Positions 4,191-41,374 of a stretch of 64,000 nt of DNA are shown here, piece after piece. The position numbers were made by a program, and so were the translations under genes. The notes under the pieces are model-generated. The model did no database searches and was not told the origin of the DNA. It worked only from the letters and a program-made list of their open reading frames with translations. The stretch lies in contig WFSG01000040.1 of the NCBI GenBank assembly GCA_015486075.1, positions 4,647 through 68,646 on the forward strand, in the 5' to 3' direction. This stretch comes from Deltaproteobacteria bacterium. GTDB lineage: Bacteria; Desulfobacterota; Desulfomonilia; UBA1062. How positions within the stretch are numbered: the stretch's first letter is position 1; each line of letters opens with the position of its first letter.

Positions 4191-4194
4191 AGTT

Positions 4195-16608: not shown

Positions 16609-17580
16609 ATGCTAGATAATAAAACAGGAAGGATATTTTACATATGCCCTGACTTTGCACCACCATCAGGCGGTGTAAAGAGATTATACACGCATGTCCA
16701 GATACTAAGGGATAACGGTTATGAGGCGTATATAGTGCATTTTAACAAGGGCTTCAGGCCGAACTGGTTCGAGCACTCGGTTCCCATTATATATTTCTCT
16801 GATAACCCGAGCTTTTCTTCAACCGATGTCCTGGTAATCCCCGAGGTGTTCCCCGGATTGATGAAGACACTCAAGGATGTACCCAAAAAGGTAGTAATAG
16901 CGCTAAATCCCCATTCCATATTTCAGAACATGGACACGGGTGAAAACTGGAAAGACTACGGTGTCAGCTGGGTCATGACAAATTCCAGCACCATAAAAAG
17001 GTTTATAGAATGGAGCATGGGCATTGAGAACGTGCTTTTAATAGACACGGCCATTGACCGCCGCATGTTCTACTATTCTCCCGGGTTAAAGGAACTGAGG
17101 GTATCCTACATAAAGAGAAAGGATTCACTCTCTCCAGTTGTTGTGAAGATACTGAGTTCAAGAAAAGATGGTATGCCTCCCGTGGAATACATTAAGATAG
17201 AGAACCTAAGAGTCGAGGACTATGCAGCAATTCTCAGGCAGTCCGAGATATACCTTACCACATCAAGCTTTGAGGGATTCCCCAGGGCCATCATGGAGGC
17301 CATGGCATGTGGATGTATATGTATTGGCTCGGATGGCATATGCGGCAAAGACTATATCATTCCCTCAGGCGACACACAGAACTTCATAAAGGTGGAGTCC
17401 ATGAATTTCATTGAACTCGCAGAACGCATGGAGGAGCTGATCAAGAGAATAGCTAGAAAAGACCCTCTTGTGGAAAGAATCAGGAAAAACGCCATTATTA
17501 CTTCATCAAGGTTCACCGAAGAGGCCGAGAAAGAAAGCGTGCTCAGGTTCTGGAAAACATACTTTGAAGCCATTCAATAA
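16609..17580 (+). CDS. glycosyltransferase (GT4-like retaining fold)
   Basis: C-terminal EX7E-type region SSFEGFPRAIMEAMACGCICIGSDG; 323 aa; first gene of the glycan operon. Confidence 0.65.
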   Translation: MLDNKTGRIFYICPDFAPPSGGVKRLYTHVQILRDNGYEAYIVHFNKGFRPNWFEHSVPIIYFSDNPSFSSTDVLVIPEVFPGLMKTLKDVPKKVVIALNPHSIFQNMDTGENWKDYGVSWVMTNSSTIKRFIEWSMGIENVLLIDTAIDRRMFYYSPGLKELRVSYIKRKDSLSPVVVKILSSRKDGMPPVEYIKIENLRVEDYAAILRQSEIYLTTSSFEGFPRAIMEAMACGCICIGSDGICGKDYIIPSGDTQNFIKVESMNFIELAERMEELIKRIARKDPLVERIRKNAIITSSRFTEEAEKESVLRFWKTYFEAIQ

Positions 17581-17590
17581 GGAGGAAAAA

Positions 17591-18373
17591 ATGAAGGTAG
17601 TGATCCTTTGCGGCGGCATGGGAACAAGGCTCAAGGAAGAGACAAACTACCGTCCCAAGCCAATGGTAAACATAGGAAGCCGCCCTATCCTCTGGCACAT
17701 AATGAAGATATACGCCCATTATGGATTTAAACAATTTGTACTAAGCCTGGGATACAAGGGGGAAATGATCAAGGAATTCTTCTATAACTACGATCTCTTA
17801 AACAATGATGCAACCCTCAAGCTAGGCCATCCCGAAGAGACGCACATTCACCGAAACCAGGACAACGAAGACGGCTGGGAGATAACACTGGCCGACACAG
17901 GAGAAAAGGCGTTAAAAGGTGCCCGCCTGAAAAGGATTGAGAAATACATTGATGATGTTGAATTCATGGCGACCTATGGGGACGGCGTTGCAAACATCGA
18001 TATAAGAAGCCTCTTATCGTTCCACCACAGCCACGGCAAGCTAGCCACTGTCACGGGTATCAACCCGGCTTCACGTTTTGGAGAGCTGAAGATAAGTGGC
18101 GACAAGGTGGAATCTTTCAACGAAAAACCCAATAACGGTTCGGGCCTGATAAACGGCGGTTTCTTTGTCTTTAACAGGGCCATATTCAACTACCTCTATG
18201 ATGGGGATGACTGCGATCTCGAAGTCGGTGCCCTGGAACAGATTGCACGTGAGGGCCAGCTAATGGTCTATAAACACAGGGGATTCTGGGCTTGCATGGA
18301 TACAATAAGGGATATGGACTATCTGAATAAACTCTGGGCTGAAGGCAAGGCCCTATGGAAGGTATGGGATTAG
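17591..18373 (+). CDS. rfbF: glucose-1-phosphate cytidylyltransferase
   Basis: N-terminal MKVVILCGGMGTRL nucleotidyltransferase motif with CDP-glucose pyrophosphorylase-type architecture. The start was trimmed to the ATG at 17591, which is preceded by GGAGGAAAAA. Confidence 0.85.
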   Translation: MKVVILCGGMGTRLKEETNYRPKPMVNIGSRPILWHIMKIYAHYGFKQFVLSLGYKGEMIKEFFYNYDLLNNDATLKLGHPEETHIHRNQDNEDGWEITLADTGEKALKGARLKRIEKYIDDVEFMATYGDGVANIDIRSLLSFHHSHGKLATVTGINPASRFGELKISGDKVESFNEKPNNGSGLINGGFFVFNRAIFNYLYDGDDCDLEVGALEQIAREGQLMVYKHRGFWACMDTIRDMDYLNKLWAEGKALWKVWD

Positions 18374-18442
18374 CTTAGACTCTAGTTATAACCTGGGTAT
18401 GACATCCTAATCTAGAAATCTAGAATCAAATTAATAGCAGAT

Positions 18443-19540
18443 ATGTTCGGCAATATTTACAGAGGCAAGAGAGTACTCGTCACAGGTGATACCGGGTTCA
18501 AGGGGTCATGGCTTGCCCTCTGGCTTCTAGACCAGGGGGCAGATATTGTGGGTTATTCAAAAGACATCCCAACACATCCTTCCCATCACCATATTCTAGC
18601 CCTAGATTACGAGACAGTCTCGGGTGATATATGTGACCTAGAGAAACTCCAAAAGGTTATCAAATCTTTTAACCCGGACATTGTATTCCATCTGGCGGCC
18701 CAATCCATAGTTCGGAAATCCTACATAAGGCCCGTAGAGACGTTTGAAACCAATGTCATTGGTACTGTTAATGTCCTTGAGGCCTGTAGGGATACAGAAT
18801 CTGTAAGGGCTATTGTGAACGTCACGAGCGATAAATGTTACGAAAACAGGGAGTGGCCCTGGGGTTACAGGGAAAACGACAGGCTAGGTGGACATGATCC
18901 ATACAGCGCATCAAAAGGGTGCGCTGAGTTGGTAACAACATGCTTTCAAAAGTCGTTCTTTCCCCTTGAAGAGTACCAGAAAAGCCACCAGACACTTGTT
19001 GCAAGCGTTAGGGCCGGGAATGTTATAGGAGGCGGAGACTGGGCTGAAGACCGGCTTGTCCCGGATATCATGCGTGCCGCTAGCCAGAATAAAAGGGTTC
19101 AAATTCGCAACCCCCATGCAGTAAGACCATGGCAACATGTCCTTGAGCCCCTATCAGGATATCTGCTCCTAGGACAACTACTGCTCGAAGGAAACAAAGA
19201 GTTTTCCGGGGCATGGAATTTCGGTCCAATCGATTACGGGCATAGAGAGGTGCTTTCAGTTATCAGAGAGTTACAAGAACATTGGCCAGATATAGATTAC
19301 AATATAAAGGCAGATGAAGAAGATCTGCACGAAGCAAACCTATTAAAACTTGACTGCTCAAAGGCATATACAAGGCTAAAATGGAAACCGGTGTGGGATA
19401 GCTCCACAACATTTGCCAAGACCGCACAATGGTACAGGGCATACTATGAATCGGGGCTTGTTTTGAGCGAGGAACAATTGGCAGAGTATATAACTGAAGC
19501 CAAGCAGAGACAGGTATCGTGGTCTTCCGATGAGGGTTAA
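18443..19540 (+). CDS. rfbG: CDP-glucose 4,6-dehydratase
   Basis: Extended SDR: VLVTGDTGFKGSWL; catalytic YSASK; 365 aa. Typical RfbG length, located next to rfbF. Confidence 0.85.
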   Translation: MFGNIYRGKRVLVTGDTGFKGSWLALWLLDQGADIVGYSKDIPTHPSHHHILALDYETVSGDICDLEKLQKVIKSFNPDIVFHLAAQSIVRKSYIRPVETFETNVIGTVNVLEACRDTESVRAIVNVTSDKCYENREWPWGYRENDRLGGHDPYSASKGCAELVTTCFQKSFFPLEEYQKSHQTLVASVRAGNVIGGGDWAEDRLVPDIMRAASQNKRVQIRNPHAVRPWQHVLEPLSGYLLLGQLLLEGNKEFSGAWNFGPIDYGHREVLSVIRELQEHWPDIDYNIKADEEDLHEANLLKLDCSKAYTRLKWKPVWDSSTTFAKTAQWYRAYYESGLVLSEEQLAEYITEAKQRQVSWSSDEG

Positions 19541-20081
19541 ACTAGTCTCCATCCGGGATGCTTTTGTCATTGAACCGGAACCAATTGAGGATGACCGCGG
19601 ATTATTCACCCGCGTATTCTGCCAGAACGAGCTGAACGACATCCTTCATGGTGAAAACATAGTTCAGATAAACCACTCTGTTACCTGGCAGAAAGGGGCC
19701 ATACGCGGGATGCACTTTCAATATCCACCCAGAGCAGAGATCAAGATAGTCAAGTGCCTGCGCGGTAGCATATTTGATGTCATGATTGACCTGCGCAAGA
19801 AATCTCCCACCTTTCTGAAGTGGCATGGGGAGGTCTTAACCTCGGAAAACATGAAGATGATGTATATACCTGAAGGATTTGCGCATGGTTTCCAGACATT
19901 GGAAAAAGACTGCGAGATACTTTATCTTCATACCGAGTTTTATAGCCCAGAATACGAGGGAGGTGTACGTTACGACGATCCCATGATCGAGATCTCTTGG
20001 CCTCTCGCTGTAACGGATATATCGAAGAAAGACCAGAACTATCCTTTACTATCCCCGGCCTTCGAGGGCATCTCCTTATGA
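19530..20081 (+). CDS. NDP-4-keto-6-deoxyhexose 3,5-epimerase (RmlC/cupin family)
   Basis: RmlC-like cupin of 183 aa (IRGMHFQ..., ...HGFQTL...). It overlaps the rfbG stop by 11 nt. Confidence 0.75.
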   Translation: MRVKLVSIRDAFVIEPEPIEDDRGLFTRVFCQNELNDILHGENIVQINHSVTWQKGAIRGMHFQYPPRAEIKIVKCLRGSIFDVMIDLRKKSPTFLKWHGEVLTSENMKMMYIPEGFAHGFQTLEKDCEILYLHTEFYSPEYEGGVRYDDPMIEISWPLAVTDISKKDQNYPLLSPAFEGISL

Positions 20082-21304
20082 AATGCAGGTTCTGCGGCAA
20101 TTATCTTAAACATCAATTCATCGATATGGTTAGCGCTCCACCATCCAATTCATTCTTAACAAAAGAACAACTAGATAAGCCCGAAGTCTTTTACCCCTTA
20201 AGACTAATGGTCTGCGAGAAATGTTGGCTTGTACAGATCGATGAATACAAGAAGTCGGAAGAAATCTTTAATAAGGATTATACCTACTTTTCCTCATACT
20301 CAAAGACATGGCTCAGGCATGCAAAGAAATATGTGGACATGATCATCTCCAGGTTAAGTCTTAATGCCACCTCCCTGGTTATGGAGATCGCATCCAATGA
20401 TGGATACCTACTGCAATATTTTAAAGAAAAAGGGATCCCATGCATGGGCATTGAACCTAGCGTCAGTACCGCCCAAGAAGCAAGAAAGAAAGGGATTGAG
20501 ACATTGGAGGAATTCTTTGGCGTAGGACTCGCGGAGAAACTTTCCAATGAGGGCAGAAAGCCGGACCTGATCATAGGCAACAATGTACTTGCCCATGTCC
20601 CAAATATAAATGACTTCGTCAAGGGGCTAAAGATTATCCTGAAACCTGGTGGTGTTATAACCATGGAATTTCCTCACTTAATGCGCCTAGTTGAGGGAAA
20701 CCAGTTCGATACAATCTACCACGAGCACTTCTCGTATTTCTCATTACACACGGTAAACCGGATATTCTCAAGTCACGACCTTGTTATCTTCGATGTGGAG
20801 GAGCTCCCAACGCATGGCGGGTCCTTGAGGATCTATGCCAGGCATGTTGAAGACAACTCAAAACCTGTAGAGCAAAGAGTTGCTGCACTATTGGAAAAAG
20901 AGAAAACACGAGGGATGCTTGCGATAGATTATTATCTTGGTTTTCAGCATAAGGCGGACAAAGTGAAATATGCGTTTCTTTCATTTCTGGTGGAGCAGAA
21001 AAAACGTGGGAAGAAAGTGGTTGCTTACGGGGCTGCGGCTAAAGGCAACACCTTGCTAAATTACTGCGGGGTTAAAAAAGACTTGATAGAGTTTGTTGTG
21101 GATGCATCTCCTTATAAACAGGGCAAATATCTGCCTGGTAGCCACATACCAGTGGTTGCAGAAAAAGAGATCAAAAGGACAAAGCCGGATTATGTACTTA
21201 TCCTACCTTGGAATATCAAGGATGAGATCATGGAACAGCTAGGTTATATCCACGAATGGGACGGAAGGTTTGTGGTACCTATTCCAGAAATCGAGATATC
21301 TTGA
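20078..21304 (+). CDS. NDP-hexose C-methyltransferase (TylCIII-like; N-terminal Zn ribbon + class I SAM MTase + C-MT C-terminal domain)
   Basis: N-terminal CRFCGN...CEKC zinc ribbon; methyltransferase motif I VMEIASNDGYLL; C-terminal C-methyltransferase domain (VAYGAAAKGNTLLNYCG). The ATG at 20078 overlaps the preceding stop (ATGA). Confidence 0.8.
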   Translation: MKCRFCGNYLKHQFIDMVSAPPSNSFLTKEQLDKPEVFYPLRLMVCEKCWLVQIDEYKKSEEIFNKDYTYFSSYSKTWLRHAKKYVDMIISRLSLNATSLVMEIASNDGYLLQYFKEKGIPCMGIEPSVSTAQEARKKGIETLEEFFGVGLAEKLSNEGRKPDLIIGNNVLAHVPNINDFVKGLKIILKPGGVITMEFPHLMRLVEGNQFDTIYHEHFSYFSLHTVNRIFSSHDLVIFDVEELPTHGGSLRIYARHVEDNSKPVEQRVAALLEKEKTRGMLAIDYYLGFQHKADKVKYAFLSFLVEQKKRGKKVVAYGAAAKGNTLLNYCGVKKDLIEFVVDASPYKQGKYLPGSHIPVVAEKEIKRTKPDYVLILPWNIKDEIMEQLGYIHEWDGRFVVPIPEIEIS

Positions 21305-21321
21305 TTAAGGAAGGCGATGAT

Positions 21322-22215
21322 ATGAAGGTATTGGTTACTGGAGCAACTGGTTTTATTGGAGGTTATGTTGTTCGACAATTAATTAATCAAGGATATCGAG
21401 TTGTTGCAACTTCAAGAAATCCTGAAAAGGCAAAGGCCTTCGAATGGATTTCTCAGGTACAATACATTCCCTGTGATCTCAATGTGATGCGGAATGACTT
21501 CTTCCAATTTTTTCATCAACCTGATTTACTGATTCATTTGGCATGGGAAGGTTTGCCAAATTACGAAGACTTGTTTCATTTTGAGAAGAACCTGTTTTCC
21601 AATTACTCGTTTCTGAAAAACATAATCGAACATGGACTAAAACGCTTGGTGGTAACAGGTACATGCCTTGAATATGGAATGCAAAACGGAGCTTTAAGTG
21701 AGGACATGGAGGCTAGACCTGATAATCCTTATGGTTTGGCAAAGGATACCTTGCGAAGGTTCCTGGAACAACTGCAGAAAAAGATCAATTTTGATCTAAA
21801 ATGGATACGTCTATTTTATATGTATGGAAAAGGTCAGAGTCCCAATTCAATCCTATCTCAACTTGATAGATCGTTGGAAAATGGAGAAACCAACTTTAAC
21901 ATGTCGGGCGGAGAACAATTAAGAGATTATTTGCCGGTTGAAAGGGCTGCTACATACATAATTAGAATCGCGATGCAAGATAAGGTAAACGGAATTATCA
22001 ACTGTTGCAGCGGTAAACCTATCTCTATTAGAAAACTCGTGGAAAATTATTTAGAGAGGAAGCAAAAAAGTATCCATCTGAATTTAGGGTTTTATTCATA
22101 CACCGACTATGAACCAATGGCTTTTTGGGGAGATGCAACAAAGCTTAACATTGCTTTATCCAGTTTTGATCTTGATAAAGGTGATAGATCTTATGAACCA
22201 GATAGAACAATTTAA
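21322..22215 (+). CDS. NAD-dependent sugar epimerase/reductase (extended SDR; likely NDP-4-ketohexose reductase)
   Basis: MKVLVTGATGFIGGYV Rossmann motif; catalytic Y in YGLAKD; 298 aa. The start was trimmed to the ATG at 21322. Confidence 0.75.
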   Translation: MKVLVTGATGFIGGYVVRQLINQGYRVVATSRNPEKAKAFEWISQVQYIPCDLNVMRNDFFQFFHQPDLLIHLAWEGLPNYEDLFHFEKNLFSNYSFLKNIIEHGLKRLVVTGTCLEYGMQNGALSEDMEARPDNPYGLAKDTLRRFLEQLQKKINFDLKWIRLFYMYGKGQSPNSILSQLDRSLENGETNFNMSGGEQLRDYLPVERAATYIIRIAMQDKVNGIINCCSGKPISIRKLVENYLERKQKSIHLNLGFYSYTDYEPMAFWGDATKLNIALSSFDLDKGDRSYEPDRTI

Positions 22216-22927
22216 ACGTGAATGTATGAGGCGTATCAGGCAGTATGGAAAGAACAAGAAATTACTAGATGCGGCGAGACTTTTTGTACAAGAATCTACC
22301 ATACCCAAATACTCCTACAACTTCACCTGGCTTGGCCGTCCAATAATTCAGTATCCACAGGACATCATCGCAATGCAGGAGATTATATGGCAGGTAAAAC
22401 CCAACCTTATTATAGAAACAGGGATTGCACATGGTGGAGGACTTATCTTCTACGCGTCCATGCTTGAACTTCTGGGTGGAGATGGCCAGGTGCTTGGTAT
22501 CGACATTGATATCAGGGAACACAACAGGGTTGAGATAGAAAGACACCCCATGTTCAAACGAATTACAATGATAGAAGGTTCGTCTATTGATGAAGATGTT
22601 GTCCAGAAGGTCCGTGACTTTGCAAAGGATAAAAAGAGGGTTCTAGTTGCACTTGATTCCATGCATACACACGAACACGTGCTAAAAGAGCTTGAACTTT
22701 ATTCTCCCCTGGTAACAAAAGGTAGCTACCTTGTTGTCTTTGACACCATCATTGAAGACATGCCAGATGGCTTCTTTCCCGACCGACCATGGGGAAAGGG
22801 TAACAATCCCAAGACAGCGGTATGGGAATTCATGAAAAACAATGACCGTTTTGAGATCGACAAGGAGATTGAGAATAAATTGCTGATCACCGTTGCACCC
22901 GATGGATATCTAAGATGCATTAAGTAA
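22193..22927 (+). CDS. CmcI/cephalosporin-hydroxylase-family sugar O-methyltransferase
   Basis: CmcI-family motif IIETGIAHGGGLIFYA, of the rhamnosyl-O-methyltransferase-like family. The start at 22193 overlaps the preceding gene's 3' end. Confidence 0.7.
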   Translation: MNQIEQFKRECMRRIRQYGKNKKLLDAARLFVQESTIPKYSYNFTWLGRPIIQYPQDIIAMQEIIWQVKPNLIIETGIAHGGGLIFYASMLELLGGDGQVLGIDIDIREHNRVEIERHPMFKRITMIEGSSIDEDVVQKVRDFAKDKKRVLVALDSMHTHEHVLKELELYSPLVTKGSYLVVFDTIIEDMPDGFFPDRPWGKGNNPKTAVWEFMKNNDRFEIDKEIENKLLITVAPDGYLRCIK

Positions 22928-22958
22928 TGCCTATACTAAAATACAAAGGGGATAATCA

Positions 22959-25900
22959 ATGAGAACAAACAAGACACCATTTGTCAGCATAGGTATGCCT
23001 GTATACAATGGCGAGCGTTACATAAAGCAGGCACTGGATTCTTTACTATCCCAGGACTACGACAACTTTGAGTTAATAATCTCTGATAATGCTTCTACCG
23101 ATAGTTCGCCAGATATCTGTCTTGAGTATAAAAATAAGGATGGCCGTGTCAAGTTTTACCGCAATGATAAGAATATTGGACCTAATGATAACTTCAATCG
23201 TGTCTTTGAACTATCATCAGGCCAATATTTCATGTGGGCAGCGTGTGATGACCTATGGACACCTAATTACATATCATCACTTGTAAAAGCTTTAGCCTCT
23301 GATAAAAATGCAGTTCTAGCATTTTCACAACTGAACAATATTGACGAAAACGGTAATATATGCCGTGAATACCCGAACCTCCATCTTCTATCATCAAAGG
23401 CCCCCCTGCCTGACAGGCTAAATAATATAATATGGTTCAGGGAAGAGGATGGGAAGGCAAACCTAGTATACGGCCTCATCAGGAGTGATATCTTAAAGAA
23501 GATTGACATATTCAAATCTTACGGTTTTGGAAACTGGGGTGTTGATTATCTTTTAGTATTTAGACTGGCGTTGTTCGGCAAATTTTTATTTGTAAATGAT
23601 TCTTGTTTTTACAAGAGACTGACAGAAGAAAACATCTCGAGATGGGCAAACACTTCTCCTGAAGAGTACTGCCACCTTATTCAGGGTTACTTCCAGGGCT
23701 ACAGAACCATTATCAAAGAAAGCAATCTACGAGACATTGAGAAAGATACACTACTGATGTCCATCTCTGCAAGGGAAGGCCATTGGTACTCCCGCATCCT
23801 AGGTTCGAATACTATTGAAGATACAGCTTCCAAAATAAGATCCATGGTTGAGAAAACTCACGATTATACAGCTCCATCCATCATAAATAATAAACAACAT
23901 CAGCACACACCCAACATGGACAGGCAGGATACCAACACAAATAAGCCTTCCCAGATAATAGATAAGACAATACTATTTCTGAGTGTTGGTAGTATCAATT
24001 ACGATTGTAATATCAACTTTTATGAACCCCTAAAGGCCATCTTCAAGAAAGCAATAAACTACAACTACATGGAAAGGCTAGAAATCTTAGGTAAAAAAGC
24101 GATGAATGAAGAGATTATCCACATAGTAAAAAGCAAAAAGCCCGACTATGTATTCATTCACACCTATCAGGATCAAATAGAACTATCCACTTTGGACAAG
24201 ATAAACATGCTTGGTGTAAAAACAATTGCATGGTTTTCAGATGATCACTGGCGCTTTGATGATTATTCAAGATTCCTGGCACCGCATGTCTTTTGCTCAA
24301 TAACAACCGACAAATACGCGGTGGATAAATATAAGAGTCTGGGATTTAACGTCATAAAATCACAATGGGCCTCAAATCAACACCATTATAGAAAGACCAA
24401 TACTCCTCTATTGTATGACGTTACCTTTGTGGGACAAAACTATGGCAAAAGAAAAGATAACTTATTTTATCTAAAAACCAAGAATGTCCCACTTAGCGTA
24501 TTTGGAAGAGGTTTTGGGACATTCCTTGAGTTCGATGAGATCATCAAGATATTCAATGCCAGCAAGATCAATCTTAACTTTAGCGGCAGCTCCCGGGACG
24601 ATAACATCAAGCAAATAAAGGGAAGGATTTTTGAAGTCCCTATGTGTAAAGGCTTCCTGTTAACCGAGTACGCCGAAGGCATAGAGGAGTATTTCGAAAT
24701 AGGCAAGGAAATAGAGTGTTTTGATGATATAAAGGATGCCCTTGATAAGATCCAATACTACCTAAAACACGAAGACAGGCGTCTAGAGATAGCCGAGAAA
24801 GGCCATATACGTGCACTAAGGGATCACACATGGGAAAAGAGATTAAGGGATTTGTTCCTCGAAGTGGAAAGACTTGAGAAAAGCTCAAGCGTGCCTCACG
24901 GGCATGACTGGATAACTACCCAGAAAGACATGCAAAAAGAAATCAGCGATCACAAGAAACATAATATCCCTTACAGGAAAAAGTATGAGATGGGTTTTCA
25001 TGGCGACAGTTACCTGCTTACGCTCATAGACCATGTGCTTACAAGGTGTGATGCATTTATAGAAACAGGGACATACATGGGTGATTCCCTTGAATATGTA
25101 GCTCGAAACTTCAGCCATCTCCATATATTCTCATGCGAACCAAAGACAGAACACATAACAGTTGCCAGAAACAAACTCCGTCCTTACCTACATAATATTA
25201 CACTCGACCAGGTTAAGTCACCAGATTTCTTATATAAAATAGTGGAAGATCACCCCGATCTTGTCAACAAGGATGTGGCCTTCTGGCTTGATGCTCACTC
25301 ATTTGGATATAAATGGCCATTGAAAGATGAGATAAGGTTTATAACAGGGACATTCAAGAAGGCATACATCTTTATAGATGACTTCAAGATACCAGGCAGG
25401 CCTGAATTTCAGTATGACATCTACGATGGTCAAGAGTGTTCCTGGGAATTTATCCATGATGAGATGTGTACGGATAAGGAATATTTAATATATCTACCCA
25501 AATACAAAGAGAAAACATCCAGGCATCATCCCCTTGTAGGGTGGGCCCTTATAGAATTTGGCCACGCAACTATGCAAATACCAGACTCACTAAAAGATCA
25601 CCTCATCCAAACATCTGCCTATAGACTGCCAGCCGAGGGCAAGTTTGATGAAGAACATCATGATCATGATGTATACAATGAATCAGTGTCATACGGGGAG
25701 AACTCCAACAGTTATATGGCAGATCACTGGTCAGATAAATCCGTCCACCCTGGTAGCGAAAAGAATAAGAACGCTAAACACCCGATTCGTCCATCAGGGG
25801 GTAAAAAGTATGTGTCAAGAGAGCATATAAAGCATGTTCTTCTAACTACCTCGGCTGCACCTAACCAGTCTCCTTTCTCAACGACAGAGAAAAGACCTCC

Positions 25901-32590: not shown

Positions 32591-32615
32591 TACCTTCTGT
32601 AATTATGGATAAAAG

Positions 32616-33905: not shown

Positions 33906-36433
33906 GTACCATATCGTTCTGCATGATCGTAAAGAATGCCCAGGATGATCTGGGTGAAATCCTTCCTATAATGGCAAAGGTCTCGGACGAGGTCATAGTT
34001 GTAGACACCGGGTCAACAGATAACACCCCTGATGTTGCCAGGACACTCGGTGCAAGCGTTATTGAAATAACATGGAAGGATTCCTTTGCTGAGGCCAGGA
34101 ACACTTACATAGATGCTGCAAGGGGAGACTGGATCATATCCATAGACGCGGACGAGAGGATTGCAGAGAAAGACCTTCACCACATAGCAGAAGCAAAGCA
34201 AAAGCCCCCCCATGGTTTCCTTATGACTACGAGGAATTATGGCAATGATCATGGGGTTGAAGGCTTCAGGCCCTGCACTGGCGAATATCCTGAGTTTGAA
34301 AATGGCTTCAAGGGATGGAGCCCATCCACAAAGGTAAGGATGTTTCCCAGGGTAAAAGGGCTCTACTACACCGGGGAGGTGAGGGAGCTCATAGAGCCCG
34401 GGCTTAAAAGGCTTGGCATACCCTTGGGTGAGGTGCTCACGCCAATACACCATTTTGGAACGCAATCCAGATCAAAGCGCCTATACTACAGGCAACTACT
34501 AGAGAAAAAGGTGCGATCCACGCCCAAGGACCCCAGGGCCATGATAGAGCTCGCAGTTGAGGATTTTCACCTGGGGAGACTGGACAAGGCCATAAGCGAG
34601 GCGGAAAGAGCCATATCCCTCCATGAGGAGGGATATAGAGGCCTTTACTTTGACCTGGCAAGTGCCTATAACCTCCTGGGCGCTGCATACATGAAGGTAG
34701 GGAAGAAGGATAAAGCACTTGAGGCATTCGACGCAGGCATAAAGTCAGGCGGTAGAAACAAGGACGTGCTTAAAAAAAATAAAGGTATATTGCTCTCACA
34801 AGGTATGCGCCCCTCTCTGGGCGTGGTGATGATAGTAAAGGACGAGGAGAAAGACCTGCCGAATATACTGGGCGATATAAAAGATGTGGTAGACGAGATA
34901 GTGGTCGTTGACACGGGTTCCAAAGACCACACGGTAGACGTGGCAAAAGATTTCGGGGCAAAGGTGGGTTACTTCGAGTGGTGTGACGACTTTTCAAAGG
35001 CAAGGAATGCATCCATAGACATGGCTGACTCAGACTATTTACTTTGGCTGGATGCAGACGACAGGATACCTCCAGAGGAGGCGGCCAAGCTACTGAGATT
35101 AAAGAAGAGCCTAAAACCAGGCAAAGATGCTGCATGGATGCTAAAGATAGTCAACACGGACAGGCAAGGTGGAGATACAGTAAGCTACCAGCTGAGGATA
35201 TTCCCGAGAAGGGATGACATGAGGTTTGTAAACAGGGTGCACGAGCAGATATTAGAAGTGGTCCAGAAGGCCGGGATTAAGATAGAATCAGCGGATATCA
35301 CCATAAGGCACACAGGCTACGATGATGAGGCGTCAAGGCTCTTAAAGGCAAGGAGAAACCTAAGGATATTACTCGACGAGGTAGGCCAGGGTAATGTCTC
35401 AAGCTCCAGGTATTTCTTCATAGCTTCATCGTACTTTGCCCTGCACGAATACGAGAGATCCCTTGAATACATCGGGAAGGCAAGGAAGAATTCATTTGGA
35501 AGCGAAAACTGGCTAAAGTACAGTTACTCTCTTGCCGCTGACTGTTACCTGAGGCTGGGCAACAAAGAAAGGGCAGTCCAGGAGTTTGGAGAGGCCACCA
35601 GTATCTACGAAAAGAGCGGGCTCATGCATTATTTCCTAGCAATGACATGCCTTAATGCAGGAATGTTCGAGGATGCTGTAAAGGCCTTTGAAAAAACTGC
35701 ATCCCTTGGCATAGAGATAGAGACATACCCTGTTCCACCAGACATACAGGAGAGTGCACCCTATTACTATGGTGTTGCCTTGGAAAGGCTTGGCAGGACC
35801 AATGAGGCCATGAAGGCATTCAGGACAGCCATAAAGATAAATCCATCACACTTTTTGGCCACCAGGGATCTTGGACTCAGCCTTCTCAAGGCAGGAGATA
35901 TGGACCAATCCCTTTCCTTCCTCGAGAAGGCAAAGAGGCTTGCCCAGGGATACGACCGCGTGCTCTGGCTTAGCATGGCAAAGATATACGATAGGCTTGG
36001 GATGACATCAAGGGCACTTGAAATCTACAGGGAGTCCGTGGGAATAGACCCCTATGACACGGATGCCCTTACTGGCCTGGTGGAGGCAAGCATGAAGGTG
36101 GACGACGTGGAGAGCCTTGTCCTCGGCATGGAGGGTCTCATGAATAACCTTGGAATGGATACGAACATGGTACTAGAGACCGTGGAGGACATAGCAGGTA
36201 CATGCTCTGACATAGCCAGGCGTCTCTTTGAGTCCCAAGATACCTTTAATGCCGAGAAACTCGTCAACTGCGCTTTGAAGCTGGACAAGAAATGTGCCAA
36301 GGCATACCTACTCGCGGCCGATATAAAGATCGCATCAGGGCAAAGAGAAGCAGGTGCCGACTGGCTCGAGAAGGCATTAAGGGCGGGAACACCTACCGAC
36401 GAGATAAAAAAAAGGATGCAGGGACTTTCCTAG
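33902..36433 (+). CDS. tandem GT2 glycosyltransferase with TPR repeat regions (GT2-TPR-GT2-TPR)
   Basis: Two GT2 cores (FCMIVKNAQDDL...VDTGSTDNT at about 33902-34560; GVVMIVKDEEKDL...VDTGSKDHT at about 34810-35330). Each is followed by TPR-like helical repeats, with a long TPR region at 35330-36433. Its start overlaps the preceding stop. Confidence 0.75.
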   Translation: MSTISFCMIVKNAQDDLGEILPIMAKVSDEVIVVDTGSTDNTPDVARTLGASVIEITWKDSFAEARNTYIDAARGDWIISIDADERIAEKDLHHIAEAKQKPPHGFLMTTRNYGNDHGVEGFRPCTGEYPEFENGFKGWSPSTKVRMFPRVKGLYYTGEVRELIEPGLKRLGIPLGEVLTPIHHFGTQSRSKRLYYRQLLEKKVRSTPKDPRAMIELAVEDFHLGRLDKAISEAERAISLHEEGYRGLYFDLASAYNLLGAAYMKVGKKDKALEAFDAGIKSGGRNKDVLKKNKGILLSQGMRPSLGVVMIVKDEEKDLPNILGDIKDVVDEIVVVDTGSKDHTVDVAKDFGAKVGYFEWCDDFSKARNASIDMADSDYLLWLDADDRIPPEEAAKLLRLKKSLKPGKDAAWMLKIVNTDRQGGDTVSYQLRIFPRRDDMRFVNRVHEQILEVVQKAGIKIESADITIRHTGYDDEASRLLKARRNLRILLDEVGQGNVSSSRYFFIASSYFALHEYERSLEYIGKARKNSFGSENWLKYSYSLAADCYLRLGNKERAVQEFGEATSIYEKSGLMHYFLAMTCLNAGMFEDAVKAFEKTASLGIEIETYPVPPDIQESAPYYYGVALERLGRTNEAMKAFRTAIKINPSHFLATRDLGLSLLKAGDMDQSLSFLEKAKRLAQGYDRVLWLSMAKIYDRLGMTSRALEIYRESVGIDPYDTDALTGLVEASMKVDDVESLVLGMEGLMNNLGMDTNMVLETVEDIAGTCSDIARRLFESQDTFNAEKLVNCALKLDKKCAKAYLLAADIKIASGQREAGADWLEKALRAGTPTDEIKKRMQGLS

Positions 36434-38857
36434 ATGAGGATACTGTACTTCAGGTTTGACCTGACCCTGGTGGATGACGACATCATGGAGGGATTCAAGT
36501 CCCTTGGTGCATCCGTAGAGACGGTTGACGTAATAACCCGCGGCAAGAGCAAGTCAAGCCCCATCTACCTGGACGAGCTTGTGCACAGGGTGCATAGGTT
36601 TAGGCCGGATATCATCATGTGCTCAAACGAGAATGCCTTGGACGACGAGGGCCTGTTCTCCAGGGTATTCGCATATTACCACGTGCCCCTTGTCACCTGG
36701 TTCGTGGACAGGCCAGTGGTCTCGCCTGCCGCAAGGCAGAAGAAATTCCTTAAGCATGCAAGTATCATATTCGTTATAGACAGATCCCACATGCAAGGCC
36801 TGAAAAATGAAGGCTTCGACAATGTGCACCTTTTGCCACTTGCTGCAAACCCGAGGAGATCAAGGGAACCTATAGAGAAATGGAGCATGCCACCAGTGTT
36901 TGTTGGAAAGCTTGACCTGGCCAGGTCAAGAGAGGCACTATCAAGGCTCAGGGAAGAGTGGCCCAGCATGAACAGGCTGGACATGGAATTTATAGAGGGT
37001 GCCATTGAATACTACAGGCTCAAGTATTCAATGCATGTAGCAGCCGCAATAAAAGAGCTTATAGAAGAAACTGGCTTCAGGCCTGGCATACCCCCTGGTG
37101 CCATGAATGAGCTAGAGAGGTTCATGGAATACGAGGCAGGGCTCAGGAACAGGGTTGAGATTATATCAGGCATAAAGGACCTAGGCGTGACAACCGTAGG
37201 AGAGAGGGACTGGAGGCTTGTGGTGGGAGAGAACAACGCCCGGGGATACGTGGCCTACGGTTCAGACGAGCTTACAGACATATACAACAGGAGTCTTGCA
37301 ACCATAAACATAACCAGGCCACAGCTTAAAGACGCTGTTAACCAGAGGGCCTTTGACGTGCCCCTTGCTGGTGGCCTTCTACTAACCGATGCAAGGGAGC
37401 AGGTCTTCGAACTATTCGATGTGCCAGAAGAAATGGAGGTCTACACATCCATACAGGACTTGAGGCAGAAGATAATGCACTTCAAGGATAATCCTGGTGA
37501 GCGCCTGGCCAGGATAACAAGGGGCAAGAAAAGGATCATGGGAGAGCACCTCTACAGGCACAGGCTTGAAGACATGCTGGATATCATAGGTGCTACCAGG
37601 CTAAGCTTTGACATCCCGGAACATGACATGGCCTTTAAGAGGATAGAGCCCTACCTGCCGGGACCTGCCATGGAGATCCACGTGAACGAAAGACATGGAT
37701 GCATACTCTTTACGAGGCCCGGAGACCTGGTGTGCGAGGACATAGCCTGGGGCATGAGAAAGGCTGGCATTGCCTGCTCCCTGTACAACACATCCTTAAC
37801 AGACGGGCCAGGCGGGAGAACAGTCACCTTTGACATGGAAAAAATAAAGGCCATGCTGGAAGAACTCAAGCCTGACTTTGTTATATCCAATAATGGCCTC
37901 GGCGCTGATGCAAATGGGGCCATACAGGAATTACTGGCCATAATGGGTATACCCTTTGTAACGTGGTACACGGACGAGCCTAGCCTGGTGGAATCCGAAG
38001 GCATATTACCTTACCATGCGAAAAATACCATTGTCTTCAGCGTCGAGGGCACATATATCCCCATGCTCGAGAAAAGAGGGTTTGTACACGTGGGCCAGCT
38101 AGACCTGGCCGTGAACACGGATAGGTTCTACCCTCTAGAAGGAGAGGCCCCTATATCTGACATCGTGTTTGTCGGGTCCTCGGGCAAGAAACAGATAGAT
38201 GCAATAAAGGCAAGTCTAAAACGCATGGATGTAGATGTAGACAGCCTATCCTCCCACATTGAGCGCATTGTGCCTATTTACATGGCCAATTGGCAATCCC
38301 CGGTAGAAGAAGTGTTTGAACAGGCATGGGAAGGTGAAACATTGGAAGAAACCATAAGACGACCTGTACTTGCATGGATAGAGCACAGGGCCGGCCAGGA
38401 GCTGAGGCTTAAGGTGCTAAACAGCATAAGAGGACTGGACCTCAAGGTCATAGGCGAAGAACACTGGGCAGTACTCATTGGCCATGAGTACTATGGAGGG
38501 GAAATTGTTTATACAAAAGACAACCTTGCAAGGATCTACTCGACCACCCCGATAATTTTAAACATCTCGAGGCCACAGTTGAAGACCGCACTGAACCAGA
38601 GGATATACGATGTACCTGCATGCAATGGTTTCCTTGTGACTGATAAAAGGGAAAGATTACAACAGGTGTTCGGCGAGGACGAGATGGCAAGCTACGAGTA
38701 TTCATCCAACATATCCTCCCTGCTAAGGTACTACCTTGAGAGGCCTGGGCTCAGAAAGGAAATGGCCCAGAGTGCAAGGAAGAGAGTTCTAGATAGCCAC
38801 ACCTATGTCCACAGGGCAAAAGAAATACTCGACGTAGTAATCAGGATTATATCTTAG
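36434..38857 (+). CDS. internally duplicated CgeB-like (DUF3880 + Glyco_trans_1_2) glycosyltransferase
   Basis: Two homologous halves (about 36434-37625 and 37630-38857), e.g. ...VPLVTWFVDRP / ...IPFVTWYTDEP and ...NITRPQLKDAVNQRAFDVPLAGGLLLTD / ...NISRPQLKTALNQRIYDVPACNGFLVTD. The same family as the CgeB-like domain inside the 2769-aa protein. Confidence 0.7.
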   Translation: MRILYFRFDLTLVDDDIMEGFKSLGASVETVDVITRGKSKSSPIYLDELVHRVHRFRPDIIMCSNENALDDEGLFSRVFAYYHVPLVTWFVDRPVVSPAARQKKFLKHASIIFVIDRSHMQGLKNEGFDNVHLLPLAANPRRSREPIEKWSMPPVFVGKLDLARSREALSRLREEWPSMNRLDMEFIEGAIEYYRLKYSMHVAAAIKELIEETGFRPGIPPGAMNELERFMEYEAGLRNRVEIISGIKDLGVTTVGERDWRLVVGENNARGYVAYGSDELTDIYNRSLATINITRPQLKDAVNQRAFDVPLAGGLLLTDAREQVFELFDVPEEMEVYTSIQDLRQKIMHFKDNPGERLARITRGKKRIMGEHLYRHRLEDMLDIIGATRLSFDIPEHDMAFKRIEPYLPGPAMEIHVNERHGCILFTRPGDLVCEDIAWGMRKAGIACSLYNTSLTDGPGGRTVTFDMEKIKAMLEELKPDFVISNNGLGADANGAIQELLAIMGIPFVTWYTDEPSLVESEGILPYHAKNTIVFSVEGTYIPMLEKRGFVHVGQLDLAVNTDRFYPLEGEAPISDIVFVGSSGKKQIDAIKASLKRMDVDVDSLSSHIERIVPIYMANWQSPVEEVFEQAWEGETLEETIRRPVLAWIEHRAGQELRLKVLNSIRGLDLKVIGEEHWAVLIGHEYYGGEIVYTKDNLARIYSTTPIILNISRPQLKTALNQRIYDVPACNGFLVTDKRERLQQVFGEDEMASYEYSSNISSLLRYYLERPGLRKEMAQSARKRVLDSHTYVHRAKEILDVVIRIIS

Positions 38858-39077: not shown

Positions 39078-40433
39078 CTATTTAAGATATGACCCTGATG
39101 CAACGAGGACAAGATGTATGTCCATCACGTTTGTAAGAGTTGGACCTGTTTTTACGAGGTCTCCAGTAGTAGAAAGATAATGGTACGAATCATTAGTATC
39201 GAGGTAATGGTTAAGATCCAATCCTCTCTTCCTACCCCTTGATTCAGTAAGGGGATCCACTATGCCACCTGCGGCATCTGTTGGACCATCCGTACCATCT
39301 GTACCCAAACTTGCAATAACGACATCATCCTCAAGTCCAGATATTAAGCCTGCACTATAAAGGGCAAATTCCTGGTTCCTTCCCCCAAGTCCGTCACCTC
39401 TCACAACCACTGTGGTTTCACCACCACTTATAATACAGGCAGGTGCCTCCACAGGCATTGATGACCTGATAATTTCCCTTGCAATGGCAACATGTACTCC
39501 TGCCACGTCTACTGTATTCCCCTCTATCATGGAAGACAAAACAAGGGTATTGTAACCCATATCCTTTGCCTTTTCCAAGGCTGCCCTGCATGCAGTAATA
39601 TTACTGGCTATCACCATGTTTACCACGCGGTCAAAGACGGGATCTCCCAGCCCAGGTGTCTCCTCGATAGCGCCATCGGTACCCATCTCCAAATGTTTTA
39701 TAACGACTTCAGGCATGTCTTGCTCTATGTTGTACCTTTCTATTACCTTGAGAGCATCTGCAAATGTTGACCTATCTGGCACAAACGGTCCTGATGCTAT
39801 CACGTCAATGTCATCTCCAACCACGTCAGAAAGCATAAGGTTTACAACCGTTGCAGGGTAGGCAGCACGGGCAAGAAGCCCTCCCTTTGTCTTGGACAGG
39901 TGCTTCCTTACTGCGTTCATCTCGTGTATGTCTGCTCCACATGCAAGTAGTATTCTTGAAACCTTCTGCTTCTCTTCTAGGCTTATACCATTCGCAGGCA
40001 TAGGTAACAGTGCCGAGCCCCCGCCGGATATAAGCGATATAACCAGGTCTCCCTCTCCACAACCATCAAGCATGGATAGCACTTCCTCGGCCCCTTTAAG
40101 TCCTTCAATGTCAGGCACAGGGTGACCCGCCTCTTTTATCCTTACCTTCTTTAGATCCACTGAGTGGCCGTATTTAACCACAACAAGACCGTCAGAGATC
40201 CTGTCACCTAGTTCATGCTCAACCGCCCTTGCCATTGCAGCGGAGGCCTTACCCGCTCCCACGACTACTATCCTCCTGAAACGGGTAATATCCAGCTCGT
40301 GTTCACCGGCACACAGGATGTTTTTCTTAAGCCGTAGATTCCTTTTTACCGCGCTTTCCGGGGCAACCGCTGATATAGCCGCATCCATTATCTCCAGTGC
40401 ATGCCTTCTTAATCTTTGTATTGATCGCAACAT
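39078..40433 (-). CDS. glycerate kinase (MOFRL / glycerate 2-kinase family)
   Basis: 451 aa; VVVGAGKASAAMARAVE; C-terminal MOFRL-type domain. Confidence 0.8.
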   Translation of the reverse strand: MLRSIQRLRRHALEIMDAAISAVAPESAVKRNLRLKKNILCAGEHELDITRFRRIVVVGAGKASAAMARAVEHELGDRISDGLVVVKYGHSVDLKKVRIKEAGHPVPDIEGLKGAEEVLSMLDGCGEGDLVISLISGGGSALLPMPANGISLEEKQKVSRILLACGADIHEMNAVRKHLSKTKGGLLARAAYPATVVNLMLSDVVGDDIDVIASGPFVPDRSTFADALKVIERYNIEQDMPEVVIKHLEMGTDGAIEETPGLGDPVFDRVVNMVIASNITACRAALEKAKDMGYNTLVLSSMIEGNTVDVAGVHVAIAREIIRSSMPVEAPACIISGGETTVVVRGDGLGGRNQEFALYSAGLISGLEDDVVIASLGTDGTDGPTDAAGGIVDPLTESRGRKRGLDLNHYLDTNDSYHYLSTTGDLVKTGPTLTNVMDIHLVLVASGSYLK

Positions 40434-40600
40434 CGTTATCCTCCTCCTGAGATAACGCTCTGTAACAAGATCTACAACCTAGAACTGACAATACATAAAT
40501 AGCACCTACCACTAAACACCTAGAAAATATTGATTATATGGTCCCATCATCTTTAGATACCAATACAAAATCTCGTAGCATTAAGCCACCATGTTTTTAT

Positions 40601-40627
40601 CTAAAGAAAAAAAATCCATCTCCGATA
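40601..40627 (+). promoter_or_regulatory. sigma28 (FliA)-like promoter upstream of fliS
   Basis: TAAA at 40601-40604, then 15 nt, then TCCGATAA at 40620-40627, against the consensus TAAA-N15-GCCGATAA. It lies 35 nt upstream of the fliS ATG. Confidence 0.5.
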
Positions 40628-40661
40628 AATAACTTAAGTATCAAGTCGGGGGTATCTAAGA

Positions 40662-41033
40662 ATGAACACTACCGGGTATCAAGCGTACAAGAAGGCTCAG
40701 ATTCAAACCGCAGACCAGGGAAGACTTATAATCATGTGTTACGAAGGAACCATTGCGTTTCTTAAGCAGGGGAAGATGGCCATGCTGAACAAAGACGTAA
40801 AGGCATCTTCCGAGCTCTTCACAAAGGCACAGAACGTGCTGTGGGAACTCACCAACAGCCTCAACTTTGAAGCAGGAGAAATAGCCTATAACCTAGAAGC
40901 ACTTTATAACTACATGATAAGACGTATCATAGAGGCCCATTATCACAGCAAGTCAGAGCTAATAGACGAAGTCGTTAATTTTCTAGAGGAATTGAAGGAA
41001 TCATGGGAGAAGATCGTATACAAGAGCAGGTGA
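40662..41033 (+). CDS. fliS: flagellar export chaperone FliS
   Basis: 123 aa with an N-terminus typical of FliS (YQAYKKAQIQTADQGRLIIMCYEGTIAFLKQG) and a four-helix-bundle-type sequence. Confidence 0.75.
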   Translation: MNTTGYQAYKKAQIQTADQGRLIIMCYEGTIAFLKQGKMAMLNKDVKASSELFTKAQNVLWELTNSLNFEAGEIAYNLEALYNYMIRRIIEAHYHSKSELIDEVVNFLEELKESWEKIVYKSR

Positions 41034-41374
41034 TGCGTGATCTCGTGTCCTGGAGGTCTACCCTCAAGGAAGGTATAAAGGCACTTTCCCAGGGAAACAG
41101 CCAGGAACTGGAGAAAATAATCGAGAGAACTGGTATTATCCAGGCTCGCCTTGACATATCCTTACCACTAGCAAGAAAAGAATCAACGACCAAGGATTAC
41201 AGAAAGATTATGCTAGAGATAAAGGGCATAGAGGATACCCTGATACAGGAGCTAACAAAGGCTAAAGGCATTGTAAAACAAAAGCTGGACACATTGGCAA
41301 AGAACAAATCCCTCCTACAGGGTTACAGAAATTCGAGCAAGACCTTGCCCAGGTTCTTGAACAGGCTCACTTGA
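41033..41374 (+). CDS. hypothetical coiled-coil protein, FliT-like by position
   Basis: Start is translationally coupled to the fliS stop (TGATG); about 113 aa, helical and charged. A gene at this position after fliS is commonly fliT, but no sequence motif was recognised. Confidence 0.35.
   Translation: MRDLVSWRSTLKEGIKALSQGNSQELEKIIERTGIIQARLDISLPLARKESTTKDYRKIMLEIKGIEDTLIQELTKAKGIVKQKLDTLAKNKSLLQGYRNSSKTLPRFLNRLT

Follow-up and report, generated by a model that had tools for sequence, protein, structure and literature searches.

A putative exporter-less glycosylation island with an embedded cobalamin/radical-SAM domain and flagellin as its candidate acceptor in a Desulfobacterota genome

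Introduction

What is known of flagellin glycosylation comes almost entirely from a few pathogens, which use nonulosonic acids or short dTDP-sugar-derived glycans. Here we describe a 64-kb stretch of DNA (hereafter the window; contig WFSG01000040.1 of assembly GCA_015486075.1, forward strand, positions 4,647 to 68,646) from a Deltaproteobacteria bacterium, an organism known from metagenome-assembled genomes (MAGs) only. The window carries an island of 12 genes that an earlier note, made from the DNA letters alone, had put forward as a candidate system for glycosylating flagellin or another protein rather than for building lipopolysaccharide (LPS) or capsule. Our analysis supports that proposal through a match to a flagellin glycosyltransferase, the loci in which homologues reside and the lack of any membrane protein. 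We regard the island as probably a self-contained, exporter-less O-glycosylation system that would operate in the cytoplasm and build a long methylated glycan, with flagellin as its most likely acceptor.

Several described systems resemble this locus in part. GmaR of Listeria monocytogenes (PDB 22ao) shares with an 843-aa island protein the order of a GT2 glycosyltransferase (GT) domain followed by tetratricopeptide repeats (TPR), and both are soluble and cytoplasmic. GmaR differs in that it adds a single GlcNAc alone, whereas the island unit is tandemly duplicated and stands among 14 GT domains; in addition, no partner of the MogR type was seen. The flagellin islands of Pseudomonas sit between flgL and fliC and use dTDP-sugars. 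Those of P. aeruginosa (a-type) and P. syringae (fgt1/fgt2 and the viosamine island) are like the present island in combining deoxyhexose and methylated-sugar genes with large soluble GTs. According to two reports (PMC3927599, PMC3958885), they furnish flagellin with an oligosaccharide without lipid-carrier machinery. The window departs from them in its CDP-based chemistry with a 3-C-methyl branch, its orphan fliS, its cobalamin (B12)/radical S-adenosylmethionine (SAM) domain and its membership in a family of fusion GTs of 1.5-3.7 kaa (thousand amino acids).

A further likeness is to the FlmG- and Maf-type flagellin GTs of Caulobacter, Shewanella, Campylobacter and Aeromonas, in which a TPR region binds flagellin and a catalytic domain transfers sugar in the cytoplasm. 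TPR is reported as the flagellin-binding module of Maf-1 (bioRxiv 10.1101/2023.12.03.569772) and FlmG (PMC7591256), and small helical specificity factors (GlfM) can assist (both sources). Unlike these systems, the window is without a MAF_flag10/MptE-like domain or a pseudaminic/legionaminic acid pathway; searches of the island proteins with Pfam and NCBIfam returned no PF01973 domain and no enzyme of pseudaminic or legionaminic acid biosynthesis, so that the island does not classify as a Maf/FlmG nonulosonic-acid system.

For the sugar itself, the nearest precedents are surface sugars of other organisms. In the CDP-cereose/cillose pathway of Bacillus cereus spores, CDP-glucose is converted by a 4,6-dehydratase, a 3-C-methyltransferase and a reductase to a CDP-3-C-methyl-6-deoxyhexose that is placed on a surface glycoprotein; vinelose (CDP-vinelose, Azotobacter) is additionally O-methylated. 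The product of the window's cassette would resemble CDP-cereose or vinelose. The cassette differs from both pathways in its additional RmlC-type 3,5-epimerase and CmcI-type O-methyltransferase, and in its organism and target. CDP-cereose is named in PMC7725333.

Finally, the class B radical-SAM sugar-tailoring enzymes, AprD4 among them, resemble one island region in pairing a B12-binding domain with a radical-SAM domain whose CxxxCxxC motif is intact. The window's domain differs from them in forming part of a multi-GT fusion and in its identity of 65-79% across phyla. To our knowledge, no radical-SAM enzyme of this architecture, or in a protein-glycosylation setting, has been characterized, and no earlier account of flagellin glycosylation involving CgeB or radical SAM was found in a literature search.

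Results

The island comprises 12 plus-strand genes (16609-38857, approximately 22 kb) in an operon-like arrangement, as judged from an open reading frame (ORF) listing and inspection of start codons. Junctions between genes span an 11-nt overlap to a 69-nt gap (stop/start 17580/17591, 18373/18443, 19540/19530, 20081/20078, 21304/21322, 22215/22226, 22927/22959, 31268/31283, 32590/32616, 33905/33902 and 36433/36434). The co-directional layout with short gaps and overlaps that the earlier note had drawn is therefore borne out, although some of its start codons differ from ours, and Pfam and NCBIfam confirm the TPR-containing multi-GT proteins, CgeB-like domains and methylated deoxysugar genes that it had listed. 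Six genes specify a sugar pathway and 14 GT domains are encoded in total; nucleotide-sugar genes and GTs are clustered here as in a flagellin glycosylation island.

Not one of the 12 island proteins has a transmembrane (TM)-like segment; the island therefore contains no flippase, polymerase, exporter or priming phosphotransferase. Inspection of Pfam matches and ORFs together with the TM check likewise revealed no Wzx, Wzy, Wzz, ABC exporter or phosphoglycosyltransferase (PGT) gene in the island or the 64-kb window, which agrees with the absence of exporter, polymerase and polyprenyl-phosphate transferase genes claimed previously. The parts by which an LPS O-antigen or capsule locus is recognized, namely Wzx/Wzy or an ABC-2 exporter, a chain-length regulator and an initiating PGT, are missing from both island and window. 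By the same Pfam and TM checks, the island has the composition of a system that acts in the cytoplasm, with no lipid-carrier priming enzyme, flippase, oligosaccharyltransferase (OTase) or exporter. No pilin, S-layer or OTase gene was found in or near it.

The clearest link to a proven flagellin GT comes from the 843-aa protein (33902-36433), in which Pfam recognizes two GT2 domains and many TPR repeats in the order GT2-TPR-GT2-TPR. GmaR, the Listeria flagellin O-GlcNAc transferase, is the top PDB match of both GT2 domains (E 3.5e-25 and 4.8e-17), and SunS, a peptide glycosyltransferase, comes next; the top NCBIfam match of the protein is the SunS peptide S-GT family, below its cut-off. This homology makes the protein, a putative tandem GmaR-like unit, a candidate for the acceptor-recognizing (priming) protein glycosyltransferase of the island.

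The second line of evidence is the genomic context of homologues of the island's giant GT, a 2769-aa fusion enzyme (22959-31268). Eight homologues were located on their contigs by direct look-up, and five lie inside flagellar filament loci. Four of these (L008, L012, L013 and L105) have the order flgN-flgK-flgL-TPR/GT-GT2-TPR-FliT-like-MT-giantGT-fliD-flhB/A...motAB, where MT denotes a methyltransferase, and the fifth (L011) reads giantGT-GT2/TPR-flaF-flbT-flagellin. The other three are an 87% identical sister (L016) beside a cheA/cheR/cheB/MCP cluster, one copy in a phage-like region and one at a contig end.

To place these loci in a broader frame, the radical-SAM domain of the giant GT was used in an alignment scan with one genome per species, which yielded 77 loci from many phyla; the window's own species is not among the matches, the best of which is 79% identical. 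Flagellar linkage was defined as a flagellar gene within 10 kb, detected with iterated HMMs, and a close clade was set at 65% identity or more. By this measure 21 of 44 close-clade loci are linked to flagellar genes as opposed to 1 of 33 distant-clade loci (Fisher p = 8e-6), and linkage is seen in 15 of the 28 close-clade loci for which 15 kb of sequence or more is available. The window itself scores negative under the 10-kb rule because its fliS gene lies approximately 14 kb from the radical-SAM domain.

Two Nitrospiraceae loci (L023 and L026) resemble the window further. Both read flgK-flgL-fliW-fliC-flaG-fliD-fliS-[MT/B12-rSAM/3xGT2]-[Maf+TPR+GT9-like]-(one minus-strand gene)-second fliS, where rSAM denotes radical SAM. 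Flagellin glycosylation islands classically occupy this position, and a fliS gene follows the island, as in the window. The Maf (PF01973)+TPR+GT9-like fusion that adjoins the radical-SAM GT is 1012 aa long in Nitrospiraceae SURF_66 (L026, 13854-16892; L023 is similar); its Maf part is a bona fide flagellin-GT domain of the Maf type, here joined to a GT9-like domain. The second fliS copy of L026 (18150-18678) is preceded by a sigma54-like GGCACGGAGCTTGCT and not by a sigma28 site.

Separate genes of the window recur elsewhere as fusions or neighbors. GT9-like domains are fused to Maf and TPR in L026 and to giant GTs P0012, P0018, P0024 and P0047, and giant GTs elsewhere have also incorporated CmcI-like (PF13578) and CgeB-like domains. 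In five flagellin loci (L011, L020, L029, L040 and L049) a homologue of the 843-aa protein stands beside a giant GT, and a CDP-3-C-methyl cassette adjoins radical-SAM GTs in five other species (L016, L024, L027, L061 and L077). These Rosetta-stone fusions and co-occurrences argue that the separate genes of the window form one system. The homologue context and the GmaR match are stronger evidence for a flagellar role than is the proximity of the island to fliS, considered below.

The sugar cassette opens with a glucose-1-phosphate cytidylyltransferase (17591-18373; TIGR02623, 341 bits against a cut-off of 300), which makes CDP-glucose and whose ATG at 17591 is preceded by an AAGGAGG ribosome-binding site. 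It is followed by a CDP-glucose 4,6-dehydratase (18443-19540; TIGR02622, 490 bits against 278), an RmlC-type NDP-4-keto-6-deoxyhexose 3,5-epimerase (19530-20081; PF00908, 5e-62; TIGR01221, 176.7 against 155.75) and an NDP-hexose 3-C-methyltransferase (20078-21304; Pfam Methyltransf_13 and Methyltransf_14). The last of these aligns over its full length with solved sugar 3-C-methyltransferases, namely MtmC (4rv9, 2e-77), KijD1 and TcaB9 (down to 3e-65). Two further enzymes were assigned by Pfam alone. One is a short-chain dehydrogenase/reductase (SDR) that is probably the 4-ketoreductase (21322-22215; Epimerase, 3e-30) and whose gene has a GC content of 0.37 and a third-position GC content (GC3) of 0.33. 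The other is a CmcI/rhamnosyl-type O-methyltransferase (22226-22927, with the start uncertain between 22193 and 22226; PF04989, 1.5e-97), which scores 104 bits with the NCBIfam rhamnosyl O-methyltransferase model, under its cut-off of 400.

The three enzymes that define a CDP-3-C-methyl-6-deoxyhexose pathway, a cytidylyltransferase, a 4,6-dehydratase and a 3-C-methyltransferase, are thus all present. The enzyme families are evident from these matches; from the known logic of deoxysugar pathways, the predicted product is a CDP-activated 6-deoxy-3-C-methyl hexose that would also be O-methylated.

The giant enzyme was resolved into domains by running Pfam on the whole protein and on segments of it. 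It begins with a GT2 domain (aa 10-134; nt 22986-23360) and a CgeB-like GT-B domain (aa ~336-645; nt 23964-24893), continues through a class-I SAM methyltransferase predicted from its fold and missed by Pfam (aa ~680-890; nt 24993-25625) to a B12-binding plus radical-SAM region (aa ~958-1370; nt 25830-27068), and ends with five GT2 modules (aa 1378-2680; nt 27090-30998) and TPR (aa 2681-2756; nt 30999-31226). An ORF of 2769 codons might be an artefact of assembly or repeat collapse. We ruled this out because its six GT2 modules are just 23-37% identical among themselves and because an independent metagenome holds a 2765-aa orthologue, 87% identical, of the same architecture.

The methyltransferase domain lies in a stretch of approximately 300 aa between the CgeB-like and radical-SAM domains that has no Pfam match. 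In the AlphaFold2 (AF2) model its core reaches a pLDDT of approximately 90, and a Foldseek search against the PDB returns COMT, MnmM and YtqB with probability 1.0 and E values near 1e-6; the stretch is thus predicted to adopt a COMT-like, class-I SAM methyltransferase fold. P0002, P0003, P0006 and the phage-like P0008 retain the domain, with identities of 54-90%.

The B12/radical-SAM region exceeds the Pfam thresholds for both halves of a cobalamin-dependent radical-SAM enzyme (PF02310, 44.6 against 32.1; PF04055, 88 against 29.5), and its CxxxCxxC motif is intact (CPFRCTFC at aa 1144). Among PDB entries the aminoglycoside sugar diol-dehydratase AprD4 is closest (7e-26, core only), followed by TokK, OxsB and TsrM. 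No NCBIfam subfamily model reaches its cut-off; the top model is the RiPP (ribosomally synthesized and post-translationally modified peptide) enzyme ApyD, at 156 against 750. The chemistry of the domain is accordingly not assignable from its sequence or structure matches. A tblastn search of the catalogued phages in INPHARED found no match to the domain.

Four further GTs complete the island. Its first gene encodes a GT4-type (GT-B) glycosyltransferase of 323 aa (16609-17580; Pfam Glycos_transf_1, 3e-13; no TM segment). Two proteins with a GT9-like, heptosyltransferase-type fold follow the giant GT. The first (31283-32590, 435 aa) scores 29 bits with PF01075 (cut-off 22) in a match confined to a short stretch, and has the GT9 structure 3tov as its top PDB match (E 1e-3); the second (32616-33905, 429 aa) scores 21 bits, just below the same cut-off, and has weak NCBIfam RfaF matches. 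Only approximately 40 residues align, and the NCBIfam scores of 19-27 bits fall short of cut-offs of 135-569, so that neither protein classifies as a GT9 LPS heptosyltransferase. The last island gene (36434-38857) encodes an 807-aa CgeB/YkvP-like GT-B protein with a DUF3880/YkvP_N domain and two Glyco_trans_1_2 domains (Pfam, 3e-50 and 9e-14), for which sequence searches found no PDB relative.

Downstream of the island, a convergent minus-strand gene of the DUF4147/MOFRL glycerate kinase family (39078-40433, by Pfam), as the earlier note had described, separates it from a flagellar module on the plus strand that begins 1.8 kb past the island end. Here a sigma28 (FliA)-type promoter-like site, TAAAG-N14-TCCGATAA (40602-40628), stands 34 nt upstream of the ATG of fliS; the note had the site right and its coordinates (40601-40627) one base too far left. 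The fliS gene for the flagellin export chaperone (40662-41033) is unambiguous (PF02561, 1e-35, 122.8 against 26.7; TIGR00208, 92.2 against 53.75) and shares a TGATG overlap with a 113-aa helical ORF (41033-41374), so that the two appear translationally coupled. Both fliS and the coupling were correctly called in the note; its FliT-like label for the second ORF is moderately supported.

The promoter-like site is the sole match with at most one mismatch to TAAAG-N14-GCCGATAA in 64 kb, and 12 of its 13 specified bases agree; a class III pattern (TAAAG-N14/15-GCCGATAA upstream of a late flagellar gene) thus seems to be present at fliS. For a looser pattern, TAAA-N14-16-CCGATA, chance alone predicts 0.26 occurrences and 24 of 100 shuffles contain at least one, so the motif alone is just suggestive. 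It gains weight from its position 34 nt before the fliS start and from the recurrence of the pattern ahead of the flagellin genes of related loci (L011, L020, L023 and L026).

For the 113-aa ORF, Pfam gave no match at E values up to 10, NCBIfam gave none, and a word-based homologue search returned the ORF itself alone. An exhaustive phmmer search assembled a family of 17 members of approximately 122 aa with the C-terminal motif RKNxxSLxGYKQ...PRFxNxRT, in which GY(K/R)Q...PRFxNxRT is invariant. The family profile aligns with FliT-like small proteins of Planctomycetota flagellar/glycosylation loci (hhalign probability 85%, E 6.5e-6, 96 columns), which themselves match PF05400 (FliT) weakly (1.4e-4 and 3e-3); the single sequence aligns weakly (probability 4%). 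Its AF2 model is all-helical at low confidence (pLDDT 67), and in relatives an ORF of this type always follows fliS, to which it is translationally coupled.

Beyond it, a 565-nt gap holds a 106-aa ORF (41566-41886) with a signal-peptide-like N-terminus and no family match; in two relatives (L094 and L095) this gap is approximately 50 nt and lacks the ORF. The next gene, a maf (41939-42577), was considered as a motility-type Maf and rejected: it is a PF02545 nucleotide pyrophosphatase and not a motility accessory factor.

Relatives (L094-L103) share a conserved backbone made up of fliS, the FliT-like gene, maf, an FGGY kinase, mlaE and AOR. Upstream of it stand a glycerate kinase in L094 and L095, and ordinary housekeeping genes (an aminotransferase, pyrF, gmk, yicC, pfkB and ftsY) in L099; L096 and L098 have an ORF layout like that of L099 with no match to the island seeds. 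In L102/L103 just a DUF6119 protein and an M78 peptidase are recognized 6-9 kb upstream of fliS, and the approximately 6 kb that follow them (3700-9630) contain no ORF as long as 200 aa. Because none of the four more distant relatives with a readable upstream flank has the island, a conserved island-fliS linkage is rejected; the fliS block is a backbone that relatives carry without the island, which makes the adjacency lineage-specific and weak evidence. As an argument, the fliS neighborhood is therefore weaker than the earlier note had it. No sigma28-like site precedes the island itself.

Comparison with the sister locus L016 points to modular exchange. DNA homology covers 17455-21273 (80%) and 22308-31266 (86%) and its end coincides with the stop codon of the giant GT (31266). 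Between the two blocks, window positions 21273-22308 correspond to L016 4307-6478, where the low-GC SDR (37%) is exchanged for a DegT aminotransferase and an N-formyltransferase. The four GT genes downstream of the giant GT are absent from L016, in which the chemotaxis cluster comes next. Such cassette exchange between close relatives is what diversifying selection on a glycan at the cell surface would be expected to produce.

The B12/radical-SAM domain (25830-27068) is 65-79% identical to those of L017-L056, which come from Planctomycetota (including Kuenenia), Nitrospirota, Bacteriovoracaceae and Fibrobacterota MAGs, whereas PolA of the window is approximately 60% identical to its nearest named relatives. 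This comparison suggests horizontal transfer of the module together with strong constraint upon it.

The remainder of the window (GC ~47%) carries housekeeping genes of an anaerobe, including PolA, SerRS, YchF, two aldehyde:ferredoxin oxidoreductase (AOR)-type genes, a glycyl-radical enzyme with its activase, and MlaE. The closest named relatives of PolA are Thermodesulfobacteriota, Desulfomonilia and Syntrophaceae MAGs, at just 58-61% identity. Genes identical to those of the window occur in the MAGs GCA_015486675.1, GCA_027007985.1 and GCA_027007525.1 and on an 89-kb contig. The source is accordingly an uncultured Desulfobacterota lineage of sulfate-reducer type. A minus-strand segment (6417-13300) encodes a YcaO-domain protein, a PNPOx-like protein, a radical-SAM/ferredoxin activase, a PFL-like glycyl-radical enzyme and a GntR/FadR regulator; since the glycyl-radical enzyme lies on the opposite side of the fliS block in relatives, a rearrangement has taken place here. 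Directly downstream of serS stand two tRNA-Ser genes with the anticodons TGA and GCT (50183-50369).

Discussion

The enzymes of the island can be arranged in a plausible route. Glucose-1-phosphate would be converted to CDP-glucose and then pass through 4,6-dehydration, 3,5-epimerization, 3-C-methylation and 4-keto reduction, so that the six enzymes could yield the CDP-activated 6-deoxy-3-C-methyl hexose, with CmcI-type O-methylation occurring on the nucleotide sugar or after transfer. The TPR arrays of the 843-aa GmaR-like protein would bind the acceptor and its GT2 domains place the first sugar or sugars onto Ser/Thr, a step suggested by the GmaR/SunS homology and by the flagellin-binding TPR of Maf-1 and FlmG. 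The 2769-aa enzyme, with the GT4, the two GT9-like proteins and the CgeB-like protein, may then extend the glycan in the cytoplasm without a lipid carrier, using up to approximately a dozen further GT domains. During growth of the chain, the embedded class-I methyltransferase would O-methylate it, and the B12/radical-SAM domain may perform C-methylation or deoxygenation at an unactivated carbon. Flagellin would thereby be modified before its FliS-chaperoned export through the flagellar type III system.

Several considerations weigh against flagellin as the acceptor. All functions have been assigned by homology and genomic context. As the earlier note had stated, flagellin and fliD lie outside the window; neither they nor flaG occur in its 64 kb or in the 10 kb to its right, a flank that holds no flagellar genes, and since the window has no flagellin gene the target stays inferred. 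No sigma28-like site was found upstream of the island, and the absence of a glycosylation island within 10 kb of the fliS block in L096, L098, L099 and L102/L103 means that the island-fliS adjacency may be incidental. About half of the close-clade loci have no flagellar gene within 10 kb, and some occur in usually non-flagellated taxa (Fibrobacter and Anaerolineae MAGs). In Syntrophorhabdus sp. PtaU1.Bin153 (L035, 231-16405), the radical-SAM-GT2 homologue has as its neighbors a PilY1-like protein, an ABC-2 transporter pair and a membrane protein of the Wzy_C (O-antigen-ligase/OTase) type, a non-flagellar and probably lipid-linked use of the module. A 1760-aa homologue, P0008 (L009, 10001-15283, and L010, ENA ERZ23499063 scaffold_15, 94.9 kb), has the order CgeB-like/MT/B12-rSAM/GT2 with an intein inserted within its radical-SAM domain. 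Its surroundings are phage-like, with dozens of small ORFs alongside a prohead protease S78_2 and HTH_17, so that the glycan-tailoring module may be carried by a phage. The L035 setting and the phage-like locus indicate that the enzyme family is not exclusive to flagella. Given the unlinked half of the close clade, the usually non-flagellated lineages and L035, flagellar loci are the most frequent setting of the radical-SAM-GT2 module and not its sole one, and the module is best seen as a general glycan-building unit.

These same observations bear on what else the machinery might modify. It is unlikely, in our estimate, that it acts on one or several other proteins, such as a pilin, an S-layer or another surface protein. 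The missing flagellin gene, the PilY1-like and Wzy_C (here of the pilin-OTase type) neighbors in L035 and the MAGs of usually non-flagellated lineages all speak for such a target, as do the CgeB/YkvP-like domains, which take their name from spore-surface proteins, and SunS, the second-closest relative of the 843-aa GT, which glycosylates a peptide. Set against these, GmaR, the closest solved relative, is a flagellin enzyme, homologues whose context can be identified lie predominantly in flagellar filament loci, and neither the island nor its surroundings contain a pilin, S-layer or OTase gene.

We think it quite improbable that the product is a lipid-linked or free polysaccharide (O-antigen, capsule or exopolysaccharide) whose priming transferase and exporter lie elsewhere in the genome. 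The MAG is incomplete and export genes may lie at a distance, methylated 6-deoxyhexoses are common in O-antigens, and the Syntrophorhabdus homologue does adjoin Wzy_C and an ABC-2 transporter; yet none of the 12 proteins (0/12) has a TM segment and the 64-kb window is free of Wzx, Wzy, Wzz, ABC exporter and PGT genes. The weak resemblance of the two GT9-like proteins to LPS heptosyltransferases amounts to matches of approximately 40 residues, far under the NCBIfam cut-offs, whereas TPR arrays on three proteins are typical of protein-directed GTs and both the GmaR/SunS homology and the flagellar context of homologues point to a protein. Very remote, by comparison, is a small intracellular or secreted glycoconjugate, either a polymethylated oligosaccharide or a glycosylated RiPP-type peptide, made by soluble GTs, methyltransferases and the radical-SAM enzyme. 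Every enzyme is indeed soluble, there are several methyltransferases, and the top NCBIfam matches of the radical-SAM domain and the 843-aa protein, both below cut-off, are ApyD and the SunS family; but the island has no precursor-peptide gene, protease/exporter or lanthipeptide-type partner, its 14 GT domains far exceed those of any glycocin system, and the context of homologues is flagellar and not RiPP-like.

Cytoplasmic glycosylation of a protein, with flagellin as the most likely acceptor, accordingly remains the reading we favor. As its giant fusion GTs embed both methyltransferase and B12/radical-SAM domains, the island would be an undescribed variant of the flagellin glycosylation island. 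More tentatively, and at odds we would put below even, the window may belong to an undescribed, horizontally mobile class of filament-glycosylation systems spread over Desulfobacterota, Nitrospirota, Planctomycetota (including anammox bacteria) and other phyla, in which an assembly-line-like multi-GT core is joined by cobalamin/radical-SAM and methyltransferase domains that tailor a protein-bound glycan in the cytoplasm; bacterial protein glycosylation would thereby gain its first radical-SAM step.

If this proposal is correct, many anaerobic environmental lineages, among them sulfate reducers, Nitrospirota, and anammox and other Planctomycetota, would coat their flagella with long, heavily methylated glycans made by a different toolkit, namely fusion GTs of 1.5-3.7 kaa, a cobalamin/radical-SAM tailoring domain and CDP-activated branched-chain sugars. 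A new enzyme family would perform radical chemistry on a protein-linked glycan, and the giant "hypothetical glycosyltransferase" genes that recur in metagenomes would be explained. The exchange of cassettes between the window and its sister would then offer a model of how surface glycans diversify, possibly under pressure from flagellotropic phages; one homologue is itself found in a phage-like region.

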